Shown: positions 676 to 21,833 of the stretch, piece after piece
How the letters are laid out: every line of letters begins with the position of its first letter
How positions within the stretch are numbered: the first letter of the stretch is position 1
Translations under genes and position numbers: made by a program
NCBI GenBank assembly: GCA_964016885.1
Contig: OZ024756.1
Coordinates: 9,486,001 to 9,550,000 of the forward strand
Length of the DNA stretch: 64,000 bases
Origin: Eledone cirrhosa
Taxonomy: Eukaryota
Reading direction: 5' to 3'
Notes under the pieces: generated by a model
Databases searched by the model: none
Seen by the model: only the letters and a program-made list of their open reading frames with translations
Told to the model about the DNA's origin: nothing

Positions 676-1876
676 TATATATAAACACATATATATATAT
701 AAACATATATATATATAAATATATATATATATAAACATATATATATATAAATATATATATAAACACATATATATATATAAACATATATATATATAAATAT
801 ATATATATATAAACATAATATAAGATCAAAAGATGGTTAAAGGAGTTCAATATATTTTATTATGCGCATTTCAAAAACAAACATCATGAAACAATAATAT
901 TTGTGTTTTCATCAGATAAAACAGGAGAACATGATATGAAGGCTAAAAAAACACTTGTTGATAGTGCAGTTTTAAATCAACATATGAAAAGTGGTTTTAG
1001 ATTGATGTGTGATATTGGGAAAAATATTTTATTTAGAGAGGGGGGGAGAGAAAAGGATGAAAAGGGAAGGAGATGAGAGGGAGAGATGGGTGATAGAGAG
1101 AAAGAGATAGTTTTTATAACAGAGAGGAGATATATTTTATATAGAGGGGTTGAAAACCGTTGGAAGATACTGTATAAATTAAAAATTTTGAAAATTAACG
1201 AAGGGAGGATATGTGCGAGGAAAAAATATATTATATTTAGGGAGGGGTGGGGGTGGAAAGGATGAAAAAAAAGGGGAGGAGATGAGAGTGAAGGTGGAAA
1301 GGGAGAGATGGGTGATAGAGAGAAAGAGATAGTTTTTATAACTGAGAAAAAGATATAATGTTTTAATATAGAGAGGTTGGGAACCGTTGGAAGATAATGT
1401 ATAAATTAAAGGAATTTGAAAATTAACGAAGGGAAATTATGTATGGAGATAGAGAGAAAAAAATAACGAAGGGAGATTATGTATGGAGATAGAGAGAAAA
1501 AAAAAAAAAAAAAAAAAAAAAAATAATAATTGTGGGTGAATATTCAAAAGGAGAAATGTAGGAATTTTAAAATTAGCAAAGAGAAAAAGTTTATGTATAG
1601 GATTTGAGAAAAATAATGTGAAGTTAAAGTTTTTATATTGAATTCATATGTATTAATAATGAGTTCGTTGATGGGGAGAAAAAAATAATAATAAATTAAG
1701 GATGAAATTGAGATTAAAAAGATTTATGATAGAGAGAAAAAATAATAATGATTGCGGATGAATACTCAAAATGTCAAAAACAAATGTTATTGTTTTACGA
1801 GGAGATATAATGAGGGTGATGAGTAAACGGGTATTATAGAGTGTATAATGCCCTTTAAAGTGTATAATGCCCTTTA

Positions 1877-2251
1877 AACTTAATTTATGAATGTAAAATT
1901 ATAACTAGCACCAACTCCTTCACCTATTTTGGCTCCACTTCCACCTCTTTTAAAGCTCGTCTCTATAATCATCATTCATCTTTCAAATACAAACTTAAAA
2001 GAACTAACACTGCTCTCTCAGAACTCATATGGTCCTTAAAAGACAAAAACATTAAATATAACATCTTTTGGAAAAAGATTTCTTCTGCATCCTCGTACTT
2101 GAACAGTTCTCTATCTAAAATCTGTAATCTCTGCCTAAATGAAAAATTTACCATTATCTCTAACCTAGAATCCATAATAAATAGACGCTCGGATTTGTTT
2201 TCCATCTGCCTGCATAAATTCCATAGAACTTTTCACAAAGTATACAGTTAA
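1877..2251 (+). pseudogene. C-terminal GIY-YIG endonuclease domain of a Penelope-like element (no start codon, 5'-truncated)
   Basis: Manual translation, open for 124 codons: NLIYECKIITSTNSFTYFGSTSTSFKARLYNHHSSFKYKLKRTNTALSELIWSLKDKNIKYNIFWKKISSASSYLNSSLSKICNLCLNEKFTIISNLESIINRRSDLFSICLHKFHRTFHKVYS*. Shows IY..YFG, FKxRxxxH, CxLCLxEK and NxRS..CxH motifs typical of PLE endonucleases. Confidence 0.9.
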
Positions 2252-2305
2252 TATTCAATTCTTTATCAATTTAGAATCTTTTCTCAAAGGCACATATACA
2301 TACAC

Positions 2306-2745
2306 CTCTTTAAAATATACCCATCTACCTTACTTTAAAGGGCATTATACACTCTATAGTACTCGTTTACTCATTTACCTCATCCTATCTTCTCGTAAAA
2401 CAATAACATTTGTTTTTGACATTTTGAATATTCATCCGCAATCATTATTATTTTTTTTTTTTTCCCTCTATCATAAATCTTTTTAATCTCAATTTCATCC
2501 TTAATTTATTATTATATATTTTTTTTAATATATACTCATATATTCTTTAAAATATACCCATCTACCTTACTTTAAAGGGCATTATACACTCTATAATACC
2601 CGTTTACTCATCACCCTCATTATATCTCCTCGTAAAACAATAACATTTGTTTTTGACATTTTGAGTATTCATCCGCAATCATTATTATTTTTTCTCTCTA
2701 TCATAAATCTTTTTAATCTCAATTTCATCCTTAATTTATTATTAT
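2306..2745 (+). repeat. Direct duplication (~210 bp, two diverged copies) in the PLE 3' region
   Basis: tttaaaatatacccatctaccttactttaaagggcattatac...ccttaatttattatta occurs at ~2309 and ~2546. Confidence 0.8.
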
Positions 2746-2910
2746 TTTTTTCTCCCCATCAACGAACTCATTATTAATACATATGAATTCAATATAAAAA
2801 CTTTAACTTCACATTATTTTTCTCAAATCCTATACATAAACTTTTTCTCTTTGCTAATTTTAAAATTCCTACATTTCTCCTTTTGAATATTCACCCACAA
2901 TTATTATTAT

Positions 2911-2945
<35 letters not shown>

Positions 2946-3520
2946 CTCTCTATCTCCATACATAATCTCCCTTCGTTATTTTTTTCTCTCTATCTCCATA
3001 CATAATTTCCCTTCGTTAATTTTCAAATTCCTTTAATTTATACATTATCTTCCAACGGTTCCCAACCTCTCTATATTAAAACATTATATCTTTTTCTCAG
3101 TTATAAAAACTATCTCTTTCTCTCTATCACCCATCTCTCCCTTTCCACCTTCACTCTCATCTCCTCCCCTTTTTTTTTCATCCTTTCCACCCCCACCCCT
3201 CCCTAAATATAATATATTTTTTCCTCGCACATATCCTCCCTTCGTTAATTTTCAAAATTTTTAATTTATACAGTATCTTCCAACGGTTTTCAACCCCTCT
3301 ATATAAAATATATCTCCTCTCTGTTATAAAAACTATCTCTTTCTCTCTATCACCCATCTCTCCCTCTCATCTCCTTCCCTTTTCATCCTTTTCTCTCCCC
3401 CCCTCTCTAAATAAAATATTTTTCCCAATATCACACATCAATCTAAAACCACTTTTCATATGTTGATTTAAAACTGCACTATCAACAAGTGTTTTTTTAG
3501 CCTTCATATCATGTTCTCCT

Positions 3521-3589
3521 GTTTTATCTGATGAAAACACAAATATTATTGTTTCATGATGTTTGTTTTTGAAATGCGCATAATAAAAT
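3521..3589 (+). ncRNA. Minimal type I hammerhead ribozyme motif (family H1)
   Basis: Stem I gttttat/ataaaat; CTGATGA at 3528; stem II aaacacaaat/gtttgttttt; GAAA at 3571; palindromic TGCGCA; AUA cleavage triplet. Antisense copy at ~855-922. Confidence 0.75.
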
Positions 3590-3798
3590 ATATTGAACTC
3601 CTTTAACCATCTTTTGATCTTATATTATGCATACTCCAGTCCCACAAACTGTAGAGTGCTTCTTATCCGATATCTGCATTGCTTTATTGTACTACAATAA
3701 AACTCACCTCCTACATATATAAACACATATATATATAAACACACACATATATATATACACACATATATATATATATAAACACACACACACACACACAC

Positions 3799-5590: not shown

Positions 5591-5783
5591 AAACCACAGA
5601 CCCTACATCTCAAATCCACTTTTGAAAAGCAGAAGAACTGCGAAACCGGTAAAGGAACCAAATAAATATATATATTTTTTTAAATAAGACTCCAGTTGCA
5701 TTTTCGATTTCATCTTTTTTTCTTTATACTTTCACTCGTGTAGGACACCTCGGTTATTTTTCATTTTGTAAAAAAACCTCACA

Positions 5784-6999: not shown

Positions 7000-7601
7000 G
7001 TTATCTCTTTCTCTTAATTTCGAGTATATTTTTTTTGACCGGCCACCTTCCTGGTGGCAAGGTTGTAAAAGAAAAGAAATTGTCATCCTTTGAATCGCAA
7101 GAATGTTTTGCAAATTTTGAAGGTGCCAACTATCGCAGCTATTTGTAGACTATGAATTAGGGAGCTGCGCTTTTTGCCCGCAAATCCAAGTTCAGTCATA
7201 CTTTGGTCCAAGCGGGTTGGTATATAACCCGTAGCTCCAATAATGATGGGTATGAAGCTAAAGGTGTATCTTGGATACTGGATTTGTAAACTCCTCATCA
7301 ATGATCCGTAGATGTCCTCCTTCTCCTGCATTTTTCTGACAACGTTTACATCAAGTGGGCAGCTGATCTCCACAACAGAACACGTTTTCAATGTGTGGTC
7401 CCAAACAACAATATCAGGCCGGTTGTGCTTTAATTTGGTGGCAGTTTTTATTTTCAGGTTCCACCAGTATTCCTTAGTGCCATCTGTCTCAATATATTCT
7501 TCCTCGTTTGTTGTTAATTTTGTTTTCCGAAGTGCGTTCCAGATGGTTCTAGCTATCCCATCGTGTCTCATGGGGAGGTAGTAGCGAGATGACATTCTTT
7601 C
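6998..7601 (-). mobile_element. 5'-truncated RLE-type non-LTR retrotransposon (R4/Dong-like), endonuclease C-terminus plus 3' UTR
   Basis: After its repeat-derived N-terminus, ORF 7083-7721 reads YLPMRHDGIA...WWN..IKT..KHNRPDIVVWD...VVEISCPLD..EKEDIY...IPIIIGATG. These are the RHD and PD-(D/E)xK-type restriction-like endonuclease motifs. Confidence 0.85.
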
Positions 7602-7691
7602 GTATGTATGTATGTATGTATGTATGTATGTATGTATGTATGTATGTATGTATGTATGTATGTATGTATGTATGTATGTATGTATGTATGT
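7602..7691. repeat. (TATG)n microsatellite
   Basis: Perfect tandem run. Confidence 0.95.
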
Positions 7692-8306
7692 CAGGTCACC
7701 AGTTGGTGCTACTGGTAACATGTATCCCAGTACAACCTATCTTATGGTCGGGTCGTTGGCGACTAAACTGGCAACCCCACTAAGGTTTTTTGGTGAGGCG
7801 GGTGACTTTGGACATCCTGCAGGACTAAAAACAAAACCTGTCAAAGGGCAAAGGAGCTCTTAAGAGTCAATGGCCATCCAAAATTACCGGGAGAGATGAC
7901 CCCTTAGCCTTTGTCAAAGCAGAATTCTAGGAGAAGGAAAACTCTGATATAACACCTGCAACCTTGATGATATCCAATGATGTTGACTTGTTCTTCTTTT
8001 TGGTAAATATCATCTTGGTTAAGAGAGTGGGACTGGCTTTGTGCAGTGCCTTTGCTCACTATAAAAGCTTCACGGCACAGGCATTGCTTTATATCTGGAG
8101 ATCTCTCTGCACTTGTCGTCACATGGTACCATGGGCCCAGCACTATGTGTCAATAATTGTCACAGGTGTAGTGTTTGTACCAGAGTTTTCAAGTTACAGG
8201 CTGGACTAAAAAGTCACACTCGTTCAGCGCATTGGTATGGGTTCTCCTACATGGATATAAAGTAGTAGCCGTACTCGAAAACGAGTTGGCAGCCACCATA
8301 TATATA
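7692..8306 (+). mobile_element. Probable internally deleted RTE-like LINE derivative (5' UTR-like part, terminal C2H2 finger, 3' stem-loop)
   Basis: 8167-8232 translates CSVCTRVFKLQAGLKSHTRSAH (C-x2-C-x3-F-x5-L-x2-H-x4-H), followed by an actcg-aaaa-cgagt hairpin and a TA tail. ggagaaggaaaactctgat upstream resembles RTE 5' UTRs (recalled, not searched). Confidence 0.5.
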
Positions 8307-12036: not shown

Positions 12037-12085
<49 letters not shown>

Positions 12086-12231
12086 TTTTGTCTGTTATTT
12101 CCTCATATTTTGTAATTTGATAAATAGCTCTGATTATTGAGTTATTTTAATTATTTTGAATATCTTAGCTCTCTCGGTCATCGAGCAAAACTTGTTAAGG
12201 CGGACACCACACACACACACACACCACACAC

Positions 12232-12312
<81 letters not shown>

Positions 12313-12336
12313 ATATGTGTGTGCATTTCATTATTA

Positions 12337-12427
12337 TTGCCTTTCATCCTTACGGGGTCGATAAAATAAAGTACCAGTAATGTAATGGGTAATTGCTGGC
12401 CTTGTGCCAAAAGTAGAAACAATTATT
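12337..12427 (+). mobile_element. SINE family A, 3' half
   Basis: ttgcctttcatccttacggggtcgat...gtagaaacaattat. Confidence 0.85.
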
Positions 12428-12670
12428 ATATTTCCCAAACTCCCTTATGGTCAAGTTAACCCTGGAGTGTATTAACTGCTTTTTCTAGCAAATACGTTAT
12501 TCGCTCACTGTTTACCTTACTACTCTTCTGTGACCAATGTATCATGTTTATTTCTCTCCTCGCCCCTCGAGAAATTCTCTCTGGCTACGAAAGAAATACT
12601 CCTTTATTTACCCCTATATCACGTGTTAATTTCTCCCTCCGCCTCGAGAGATTTTTTCACTTCTTTCTGA

Positions 12671-12767
12671 GGGGTCTCTTGATAAGCCGTACCAACCTCA
12701 CAGCGATGATGCATTTCTATAGTGCAGAAATTTGCGTACGGATCGGCGAAACTGCAGTCGGGACTTT
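12671..12767 (+). ncRNA. Type I hammerhead ribozyme, U3:A8 variant (family H5)
   Basis: ggggtctc-TTGATAA-GCCG...CGGC-GAAA-CTGCAG-TC-gggacttt. All three stems pair; GUC cleavage triplet; palindromic stem III. Confidence 0.75.
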
Positions 12768-12805
12768 GAATGAAAAATAGGTATATTTTTGTCTATTATT
12801 TCCTC

Positions 12806-12850
<45 letters not shown>

Positions 12851-13547
12851 CTTGAATGTTTGCAGGGAACTCGGGAATGTGATTGTTATTGGTTGAGATG
12901 CGAGGCAAGTCAAAGGTTAAAATGTAGGATAACAAACAACGAAAATGTAATTTTGTGCGACGATTGTATGATTGTATACTTACGCGTATTAAATCTTATT
13001 CTACATAAAAACAAACATACATGCATGCATACACACGCTGGTTGTATATATGTTTAGCGTGTGTATATGCGTCTATATAGGTGATTAAACATCCCTGGTA
13101 ACTTCTGTGAGTCCGTTGTAATACAGTAAACCATTGTATATATTAAACATGTATCACAGAAAAACAAGAATCAGTAATTTTACAACTGTGTTCCTATTGA
13201 GAATCTGGTGTTAACGCAACAGTTGTAACCTTTATTTAGTTCTCTACTTGCAGAGTTGTGGCTAACATCATAAAATATGTAGAAGCTGCAGTAATAAATA
13301 TAGAAATATTTGTGTAAATACATCGTTGTATAGAATCTAGTATAGAGAGAACAATAAAATCTAAAGAAATCTAAAGATTAATATATCAGTGAAATAATAA
13401 AATTAGGAAGACTTGTGGTAGAGTCAATCTTAAATTAGTTGTCCCTTGGAGAGGTTTAGCCAAATATTATTGTGTAATAACTATCAACACTAGAGCAGAG
13501 AAACTATATCATAAAATATAGCAATCAATAGACAGTATTTACAAATT

Positions 13548-18360: not shown

Positions 18361-18698
18361 ATATACGATATTAACAAATGGAAACTATATTTATAAAACC
18401 ATATTTATTTCATTATACATATTTCAAGGATACCAAGTTAAATTATGGTATGCCTTCATCAGACAAAATACAATATATACCAGTTTTATAAATACTATCC
18501 TGATGTTTTATAGATACTATCCTGATGTCTTCCAAAACTAAGGGTCGCATTTTGAAAGGGTACGTCAATGTTAAAACTGGTATATATTGTATTTTGTCTG
18601 ATGAAGGCATACCATAATTTAACTTGCTTTCCTTGAAATATGTATAATGAAATAAATATGGTTTTATAAATATAGTTTCCATTTGTTAATATCGTATA
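18361..18698. mobile_element. Inverted pair (~127 bp arms) of an HHR-bearing element (family H6)
   Basis: 18361-18487 is the reverse complement of 18573-18698. The + arm has attttgt-CTGATGA-agg...cctt-GAAA-tatgta-TA-atgaaat (18591-18653). Confidence 0.7.
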
Positions 18699-18862: not shown

Positions 18863-19396
<534 letters not shown>

Positions 19397-20723: not shown

Positions 20724-21561
20724 GTAGGAGGTGAGTTTTATTGTAGTACAATAAAGCAATGCAGATATCGGATAAGAAGCACTCTACAGTTTGTAGGACT
20801 GGAGTATAAATAATATATAAGATCAAAAGATGGTTAAAAGAGTTCCATGTATTTTATTATGCGCATTTCAAAAACAAATATCATCATACAATAACATTTG
20901 TGTTTTCATCAGATAAAATAGGAAGACATGATATGAAGGTTAATTTGATGTTGATTTAAAACTGCACTATTCACAAGTGTTTTTTAACCTTCATATCATG
21001 TCTTCCTATTTTATCTGATGAAAACACAAATGTTATTGCATGATGATATTTGTTTTTGAAATGCGCATAATAAAATACATGGAACTCTTTTAACCATCTT
21101 TTGATCTTATATATATATATATACATATATGTAGGAGGTGAGTTTTATTGTAGTACAATAAAGCAATGCAGATATCGGATAAGAAGCACTCTACAGTTGT
21201 AGGACTGGAGTATACATAATATATAAGATCAAAAGATGGTTAAAGGAGTTCCATGTATTTTATTATGCGCATTTCAAAAACAAACATCATCATGCAATAA
21301 TATTTGTGTTTTCATCAGATAAAACAGGAGAACATGATATGAAGGCTAAAAAACACTTGTGGATAGTGCAGTTTTGAATCAACATATGATTTAAAATCAA
21401 CATGTTGATTTAAAACTGCACTATCCACAAGTGTTTTTTAGCCTTCATATCATGTTCTCCTGTTTTATCTGATGAAAACACAAATATTATTGCATGATGA
21501 TGTTTGTTTTTGAAATGCGCATAATAAAATACACGGAACTCCTTTAACCATCTTTTGATCT

Positions 21562-21599: not shown

Positions 21600-21833
21600 A
21601 AATGAGGTCGTTTTTCCAAAATGAAAAAAAAAACGAGATGTCCTACACGAGTGAAAGTATAAGGTAAACAGATGAAATCAAAAATGCAACTGGAGTATTT
21701 TTAAGAATATTTATTTGTTTCCTTTAACGGTTTCACAGTTCTTATGCTTTTCAAAAGTAGAATTGTAAAGGAAACAAATAAATATTCTTAAAAAGACTCC
21801 AGTTGCATTTTCCATTTCATCTTTTTACCTTAT
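21597..21833 (-). mobile_element. Diverged family H2 element with partial inverted copy
   Basis: cctacacgagtgaaagtataa...cctttaacggtttcacag...gcttttcaaaag, followed by a + strand copy starting taaaggaaacaaataaa. Confidence 0.7.

Follow-up and report, generated by a model that had tools for sequence, protein, structure and literature searches.

The window analysed here is a 64,000-nt stretch of the Eledone cirrhosa genome, and all positions given below refer to it. Judged by its sequence, the segment at 12671-12767 is a real type I hammerhead motif. It sits at the 3' end of a non-coding unit of 0.47-0.89 kb with a GC content of 35-40%. The features of the motif and of the surrounding unit are as follows:

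12084-12336, plus strand: unit start, corresponding to what comes after the hammerhead tail in tandem arrangements (aligned to tandem copy L016)
12204-12310, plus strand: expanded (AC)n inside the unit start
12337-12432, plus strand: inserted 3' fragment of a SINE-like repeat with a very high copy number
12472-12488, plus strand: branch-point-like and splice-acceptor-like motif, the putative end of a retained intron
12489-12659, plus strand: pyrimidine-rich internal subrepeats upstream of the hammerhead
12668-12672, plus strand: predicted 5' strand of a pseudoknot, UGAGG, in the 5' flank of stem I
12671-12678/12760-12767, plus strand: stem I in its 8-pair form, with 4/8 pairs G-U (sequence and descriptor scan)
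12674-12678 with 12760-12764, plus strand: 5' arm of stem I, 5-bp core (alignment)
12679-12685, plus strand: 5' half of the catalytic core, UUGAUAA, a U3-A8 variant (sequence)
12686-12747, plus strand: long stem II, with GCCG (12686-12689) and CGGC (12744-12747) closing a 54-nt insert
12696-12700, plus strand: predicted 3' strand of the pseudoknot, CCUCA, in a pyrimidine-rich bulge early in stem II
12710-12726, plus strand: apical hairpin in the stem II insert (sequence and descriptor scan)
12748-12751, plus strand: GAAA of the core (sequence and descriptor scan)
12748-12759, plus strand: GAAA, palindrome ACUGCAGU and GUC, with predicted cleavage after C12759
12751-12758, plus strand: 8-nt palindrome ACTGCAGT (sequence)
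12760-12812, plus strand: 3' arm of stem I and tail, up to the usual 3' end of the element
12780/12781, plus strand: splice-donor-like site
12812-12848, plus strand: 3'-junction (TA)n, which usually adjoins the 3' ends of this family

The type I core, (C/U)UGAN(G/A)A...GAAA...UH with a 3-8 pair, is represented by UUGAUAA, GAAA and GUC. Inspection of the sequence and a descriptor scan placed stem I, stem II with its 54-nt insert and hairpin, the palindrome and the GUC where a preliminary description of this DNA had drawn them. That description had called the GUC site canonical. The core is TTGATAA rather than CTGATGA, and its U3-A8 pair had been missed. A descriptor with a stem I of at least 8 bp found one match in window positions 1-25300 and none in 60 dinucleotide shuffles. 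In the genome, the exact core pattern gave 29 matches against 0 for a reversed control, and a relaxed core pattern gave 313 against 9. By the shuffles and the exact cores, the motif is more than a chance likeness. Rfam returned no match at the gathering score across the window and, within 12300-13000, no ribozyme match at E values up to 10, with five chance matches there. The long stem II insert is the likely reason for this miss.

The palindrome is predicted to form stem III in two ways, as 2 bp with a tetraloop in the monomer and as an intermolecular duplex in the dimer. The computed energy of the self-duplex of 12752-12758 is -8.9 kcal/mol. Covariation of stem III is unreadable because the palindrome was fixed by the search pattern.

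Alignment to tandem copy L016 delimits 12084-12815 as one whole repeat unit plus about 30 nt. The unit start aligns to L016 at 110/120 and 45/52 positions, and its first position, 12084, lies 27 nt past the cleavage-site equivalent of a missing upstream hammerhead. The preliminary description had presented the motif as a stand-alone ribozyme followed by (TA)n, like a solo pLTR. The (TA)n is indeed present at 12812-12848. The motif itself is not stand-alone, as it ends a complete short non-coding unit that is repeated head-to-tail at 0.46-0.89 kb, and the reading as a solo pLTR is not supported, given the whole unit present here and the lack of a parent ORF in the sampled loci.

Two further elements of the unit are distinctive. 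The fragment at 12337-12432, which we take from copy L016 to derive from a SINE, is common to one subfamily (10/51 copies examined), and such SINE-like repeats presumably resemble octopod ones. In L016 (positions 1039-1242) and nine other copies, the pattern is that of a SINE-like repeat that entered the unit once and then spread along with it, of which the window retains the 3' part only. The branch- and acceptor-like motif recurs in 58 copies in the sampled loci. Together with the donor-like site, the keeping of these motifs suggests a retained intron. A search for a spliced genomic copy gave 0 matches at up to 2 mismatches, a threshold of limited sensitivity at about 10% divergence.

Copy number and insertion pattern

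A motif search of the 3.0 Gb assembly returned 995 candidates, and the best 40 of the 995, when scored, gave 42 matches. Among these best 40, the other copies are 87-92% identical to the window copy. The motif is therefore multi-copy outside the window, as this genome-wide check of copy number established. Within the window, the description of the motif as single copy holds for its own family, of which no second hammerhead was found there. It does not hold for hammerheads at large, as 12 further hammerhead-like motifs from three other families are present. One of these families has a U3-A8 core, a short stem II and a 6-nt palindrome, with copies at 5621-5651 (plus), 19055-19085 (minus), 19162-19192 (plus) and 21725-21754 (minus), two of the four lying back to back. 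Six hammerhead-like motifs belong to two families of Penelope-like element (PLE) type and form inverted pairs, at 18414-18462 (minus), 18598-18646 (plus), 20858-20912 (minus), 21015-21069 (plus), 21264-21318 (minus) and 21469-21523 (plus).

More than one hammerhead was found in 31 of the 149 hammerhead-bearing loci, a count that includes a few loci representing the same place sampled twice. The additional hammerheads lie 456-885 bp away when on the same strand, or are inverted. At least two consecutive hammerhead-bearing non-coding units, which is how Li et al. (10.64898/2026.07.22.740005) delimit a retrozyme, are present at some loci, among them L016 and L022/L092; the window copy has a single hammerhead.

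The ends of the copies differ in character. At the 3' side, a TA run lies within 40-85 nt of the cleavage site in 76/115 copies, 27/115 continue into the unit and 12/115 end otherwise. The optional 3' extension here is about 170 nt; the PLE tail is described as 30-40 bp in PMC8557442. The 50 mapped 5' ends are scattered, as in 5'-truncated copies. Three of them (copies L103, L120 and L013) fall within 1 nt of the predicted cleavage site, and six lie between -1 and +9. Such ends may be a fossil of cleavage in vivo, a weak hint from too few copies to rely on.

PLE insertions are described as mostly 5'-truncated, with partial tandems, inverted 5' copies and microsatellite targets (PMC8557442). 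The copies here display 5' truncation, partial tandems, inverted copies, a defined 3' end and microsatellite targets. This match in truncation, tandem arrangement, inversion and (TA)n ends supports an element of PLE type.

Covariation and the predicted stem I/stem II pseudoknot

Relaxed and follow-up searches identified related families in which the core's 3' half and the long stem II recur, with inserts of 33-62 nt, and which carry C3-G8 instead of U3-A8. These were compared in two alignments, A1 (32 rows) and A2 (30 rows), whose rows were chosen by hand among matches to the core pattern. Given the relatedness of these rows, we read the covariation as a small number of events, about four, rather than dozens. 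In A1, the 3-8 pair is U-A in 17/32 rows, C-G in 11/32, U-G in 2/32 and unpaired in 2/32, and the stem II pair of alignment columns 29 and 102 is C-G in 17/32 and U-A in 12/32. The 5-bp stem I is paired in 83% of cells of the hand-picked rows, with double changes in 4/5 pairs. Compensatory changes are thus found in both stems I and II, again among related, hand-picked rows with few independent events. This cross-family covariation, together with the insertion architecture, backs the hammerhead identity, the predicted cleavage position and the PLE-like context proposed earlier. The U3-A8 core itself has been reported in Schistosoma PLEs (PMC4209133), and a U3-A8 hammerhead has been reported as active in vitro (PMC3088659).

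The 5' flank of stem I is complementary to the bulge early in stem II, and a pseudoknot is predicted between them. The commonest helix in family A, to which the window copy belongs, is UGAGG/CCUCA; the counterparts are UGAGAA/UUCUCA in family B, AAGAA/UUCUU in family G, ACAGAA/UUCUGU in family H and, as read from the alignment, AAGACU/AGUCUU in family I. Going by these sequences, five families keep a knot helix with five different sequences. With anchors that excluded both knot strands, a Watson-Crick helix of at least 5 bp was found in 51/89 copies of A, 11/16 of B, 12/22 of G, 11/13 of H and 2/10 of I. Control windows gave 0, save for one control in family B with 6/16 at 5 bp. When strands were taken from different copies, helices of at least 5 bp formed in 40-83% of combinations within a family versus 0-10% across families.

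In an independent MAFFT alignment of 30 hand-picked rows, knot cells were paired in 76% versus 66% after shuffling, with 0/500 shuffles as high, and sliding the strands gave 42-60%. The outer knot pairs are unpaired in 14/30 and 13/30 rows. Measures of pair count and pair type applied to the knot alone did not beat the shuffles (266/500 and 277/500). Overall, a Watson-Crick helix joining the stem I and stem II regions is predicted, with support from covariation. Stem I/II pseudoknots of this kind hold the active geometry and speed cleavage in other hammerheads, according to PMC3088659. We predict that the knot here replaces the distal G-U pairs of stem I and acts as the tertiary contact linking stem I with stem II. 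The 8-bp stem I of the preliminary description can be paired as drawn, but its three distal pairs are weakly kept and compete with the better-supported pseudoknot.

Folding calculations bear on the state of the window copy. Its minimum free energy (MFE) is -26.0 kcal/mol, compared to -23.6 kcal/mol with the hammerhead constrained, and the MFE fold is not a hammerhead (z 0.33), which disagrees with its earlier rating as the best-formed candidate. An open-core fold exceeded 10% of the ensemble in 0/30 copies, under a model without tertiary contacts. Comparison with other copies and with three sequencing runs (X1 and X2, of unrecorded kind, and X4, DNA), which also showed the repeat to be multi-copy, indicated that the window copy departs from most copies at 12692, 12717, 12736-12737 and 12771-12772. 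The changes at 12692 and 12736-12737 give rise to a competing helix in its MFE. Because these private substitutions favour a misfold, the window copy is probably inactive, a decayed member of the family. Circular folding of four hammerhead-to-hammerhead units gave mixed results, with z from -0.86 to -5.88 (25 shuffles each).

Autonomous PLEs and the search for a coding parent

The same genome contains an autonomous Neptune-like PLE with an 821-aa frame, a tandem period of 3.9 kb and 57,019 candidate matches, many of which are 99% identical and have open 821-aa frames. It was assigned to this clade by the CxC..C linker described in PMC8557442 rather than by a tree. Its layout is like that of the unit, with a hammerhead and 8-nt palindrome 1.0-1.3 kb after the endonuclease. 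One copy lies in the window:

823-3716: 5'-truncated, partly inverted young autonomous Neptune-like PLE copy, with an endonuclease frame at 1868-2251, plus strand
3528-3582, plus strand, and 861-915, minus strand: hammerhead motifs of this copy

In the 81 loci compared, the unit shared only two known neighbours and simple repeats with three autonomous PLE families, and no homology to a pLTR of these families was found. The three families (L268-L317 and L090) have hammerhead-like cores with a long stem II region of 36, 38 and 64 nt, which suggests that the PLEs of this genome may often have long inserts.

A parent was sought by tblastn of the 821-aa PLE protein against the sampled loci. No ORF with RT and GIY-YIG contiguous with a hammerhead-bearing unit was found in this sample, and the check for a parent PLE proposed in the preliminary description accordingly yielded no parent ORF there. 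RT/EN matches at L034, L141, L143, L152, L164 and L178 were rejected as parents, being separate insertions or split from the unit by other repeats. For the remaining RT/EN matches near copies, only their position and shared coverage were used. In the sampled loci, hammerheads follow one another at about 0.5 kb without an intervening ORF, and the master element therefore appears to be non-autonomous.

Two other components of the window were recorded. A 217-aa frame at 7083-7736 (minus strand) has no Pfam match; we take it to resemble the C-terminal restriction-like endonuclease region of R2/R4-type non-LTR retrotransposons. The segment 25194-64000 is a strongly strand-skewed satellite of 39 kb, in which a 52-bp period recurs in 755 copies with 80% matches.

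Proposed origin and activity of the family

The motif, its copy number, the unit structure and the covariation of the core, stem II and knot strands are direct observations. From these we consider it likely that the locus holds a U3-A8 type I hammerhead at the 3' end of a multi-copy non-coding unit, probably a non-autonomous, retrozyme-like PLE, with a predicted pseudoknotted fold. Tandem master copies would be transcribed and then reverse transcribed in trans by the GIY-YIG/RT protein of a Neptune-like PLE, with copying begun some 50-60 nt beyond the cleavage site and insertion at (TA)n. As in other hammerheads, the pseudoknot would keep stem I alongside stem II, and cleavage after C17 could then occur with the 2-bp stem III of the monomer, or more readily as a palindrome dimer. 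The knotted hammerhead could divide the transcript into unit-length pieces. For type I hammerheads whose palindromic stem III is short, cleavage is reported to be better as dimers, with a 2-bp stem III and tetraloop allowing some monomer cleavage (PMC7229834). Counting against our reading, 8/9 predicted Xenopus retrozyme dimers were reported as uncleaved in vitro (10.64898/2026.07.22.740005). Cleavage may be dispensable for copying, because 15 of the 26 copies that continue into a downstream unit reach at least 8 nt upstream of the upstream cleavage site. For an anole PLE in vitro, uncleaved RNA is the main template (PMC11167929). The window copy would be a dead-on-arrival monomer.

Alternatively, as the preliminary description suggested, the copies could be 5'-truncated pLTR stubs of an old, unsampled autonomous PLE, with a hammerhead of the usual dimer-dependent PLE kind. 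Most PLE insertions are 5'-truncated, the donor-, branch- and acceptor-like motifs resemble a retained PLE intron, and the DNA searches scored only the best 40 candidates each. We nevertheless regard this origin as unlikely, since head-to-tail copies recur every 0.46-0.89 kb with no ORF between in the sampled loci, compared to every 3.9 kb in the autonomous family, and no sequence further upstream is common to the copies. A different objection accepts the element and concerns the knot, which might not be activating. Stem I would then continue through 8 bp into a distal U/A helix, and the complementarity would be inhibitory or switching, or a by-product of few ancestral changes.

The two helices are exclusive because G12671 and G12672 cannot join both. 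In 13/30 copies the constrained hammerhead fold is 2.0 kcal/mol less stable than the MFE fold, which retains the long stem I, and the long stem I extension as a whole beats its own shuffles (60.9% versus 53.4%). The predicted knot duplex is only -5.3 kcal/mol. However, double changes number 0, 2 and 2 at the disputed distal pairs of stem I, which lack pairing in 7/30, 12/30 and 15/30 rows, whereas the inner knot pairs have 9 and 7 double changes and lack pairing in 1/30 and 8/30. The geometry also recurs in five families with different letters, and we give a non-activating knot a lower probability than the stubs. That the motif is a chance or non-functional likeness inside an unrelated repeat is very improbable. 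The lack of an Rfam match and the non-hammerhead MFE of the window copy would fit such a likeness, but the core, stems and 3-8 pair covary across families, and the shuffle and reversed-pattern controls speak against it.

The preferred reading, a non-autonomous and retrozyme-like PLE, places the family between systems already described. As reported in PMC4209133, metazoan PLE pLTR hammerheads, including the U3-A8 hammerhead of Schistosoma Cercyon, are likewise type I with a palindromic stem III and U3-A8, and are located near the 3' end of the element in mostly single dispersed copies. They are described there as minimal, with a short stem II and without tertiary contact, in contrast to the 33-62 nt stem II inserts, the knot-capable 5' flank of stem I and the lack of an ORF here. 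Animal non-LTR retrozymes, as described in PMC7229834 and 10.64898/2026.07.22.740005, are also non-coding units with one type I hammerhead and a GC content below 45%, present as head-to-tail dimers and many monomers, with a proposed dependence on PLEs. The length of the unit falls inside the 51-972 bp retrozyme range of Li et al. (10.64898/2026.07.22.740005), a study that derives animal retrozymes from PLEs, and we judge the unit to be close to them. Compared to the retrozymes in these two papers, arrays here have at most 2 same-strand units in the sampled loci. The copies also have PLE-like truncation, inversion, (TA)n ends and intron-like signals, and a Watson-Crick knot where a canonical loop 1/loop 2 contact would be expected.

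Perreault et al. 2011 (PMC3088659) described hammerheads in which stem I forms Watson-Crick pairs with stem II; these included all three types, I, II and III, and made up about 40% of the set studied. The cases treated in its text are mainly type II and prokaryotic or metagenomic, and the figures or supplements of that paper may contain similar type I cases. In the present animal repeat, the knot partner of the stem I flank is a bulge inside a long stem II. PMC8557442 mentions PLE 'half cores' at a spacing of 35-50 nt and assigns them no fold. Already known are the hammerhead, the U3-A8 core, the PLE context and, in general, hammerheads with a pseudoknot. The searches made did not find, for any animal non-autonomous PLE-like family, a covarying knot combined with a long bulged stem II. 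The literature search found neither this family nor a pseudoknotted PLE or retrozyme hammerhead, and papers or supplements beyond its coverage, Repbase and Dfam may contain the family.

The window copy alone is minor, and the family is of modest importance. Descriptions of animal PLE hammerheads present them as minimal, slow motifs that depend on dimers. Here, the covarying knot and the natural switch from C3-G8 to U3-A8 indicate a fold under selection in at least 5 subfamilies of non-coding elements. It is possible, and we put this forward tentatively, that these represent a long-lived non-autonomous, Penelope-dependent lineage with a bulge-to-flank hammerhead architecture undescribed in animal retroelements. 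Such a hammerhead would be fast and monomer-competent, and the lineage a living link between PLEs and retrozymes. The family is relevant to the proposed view of animal retrozymes as non-autonomous PLEs, and it exemplifies a class of motif missed by Rfam here. If the architecture holds, Rfam and short-loop descriptors miss such ribozymes, and many motifs, including the long-spaced 'half cores' that PLE surveys left out of account, could be uncounted ribozymes.
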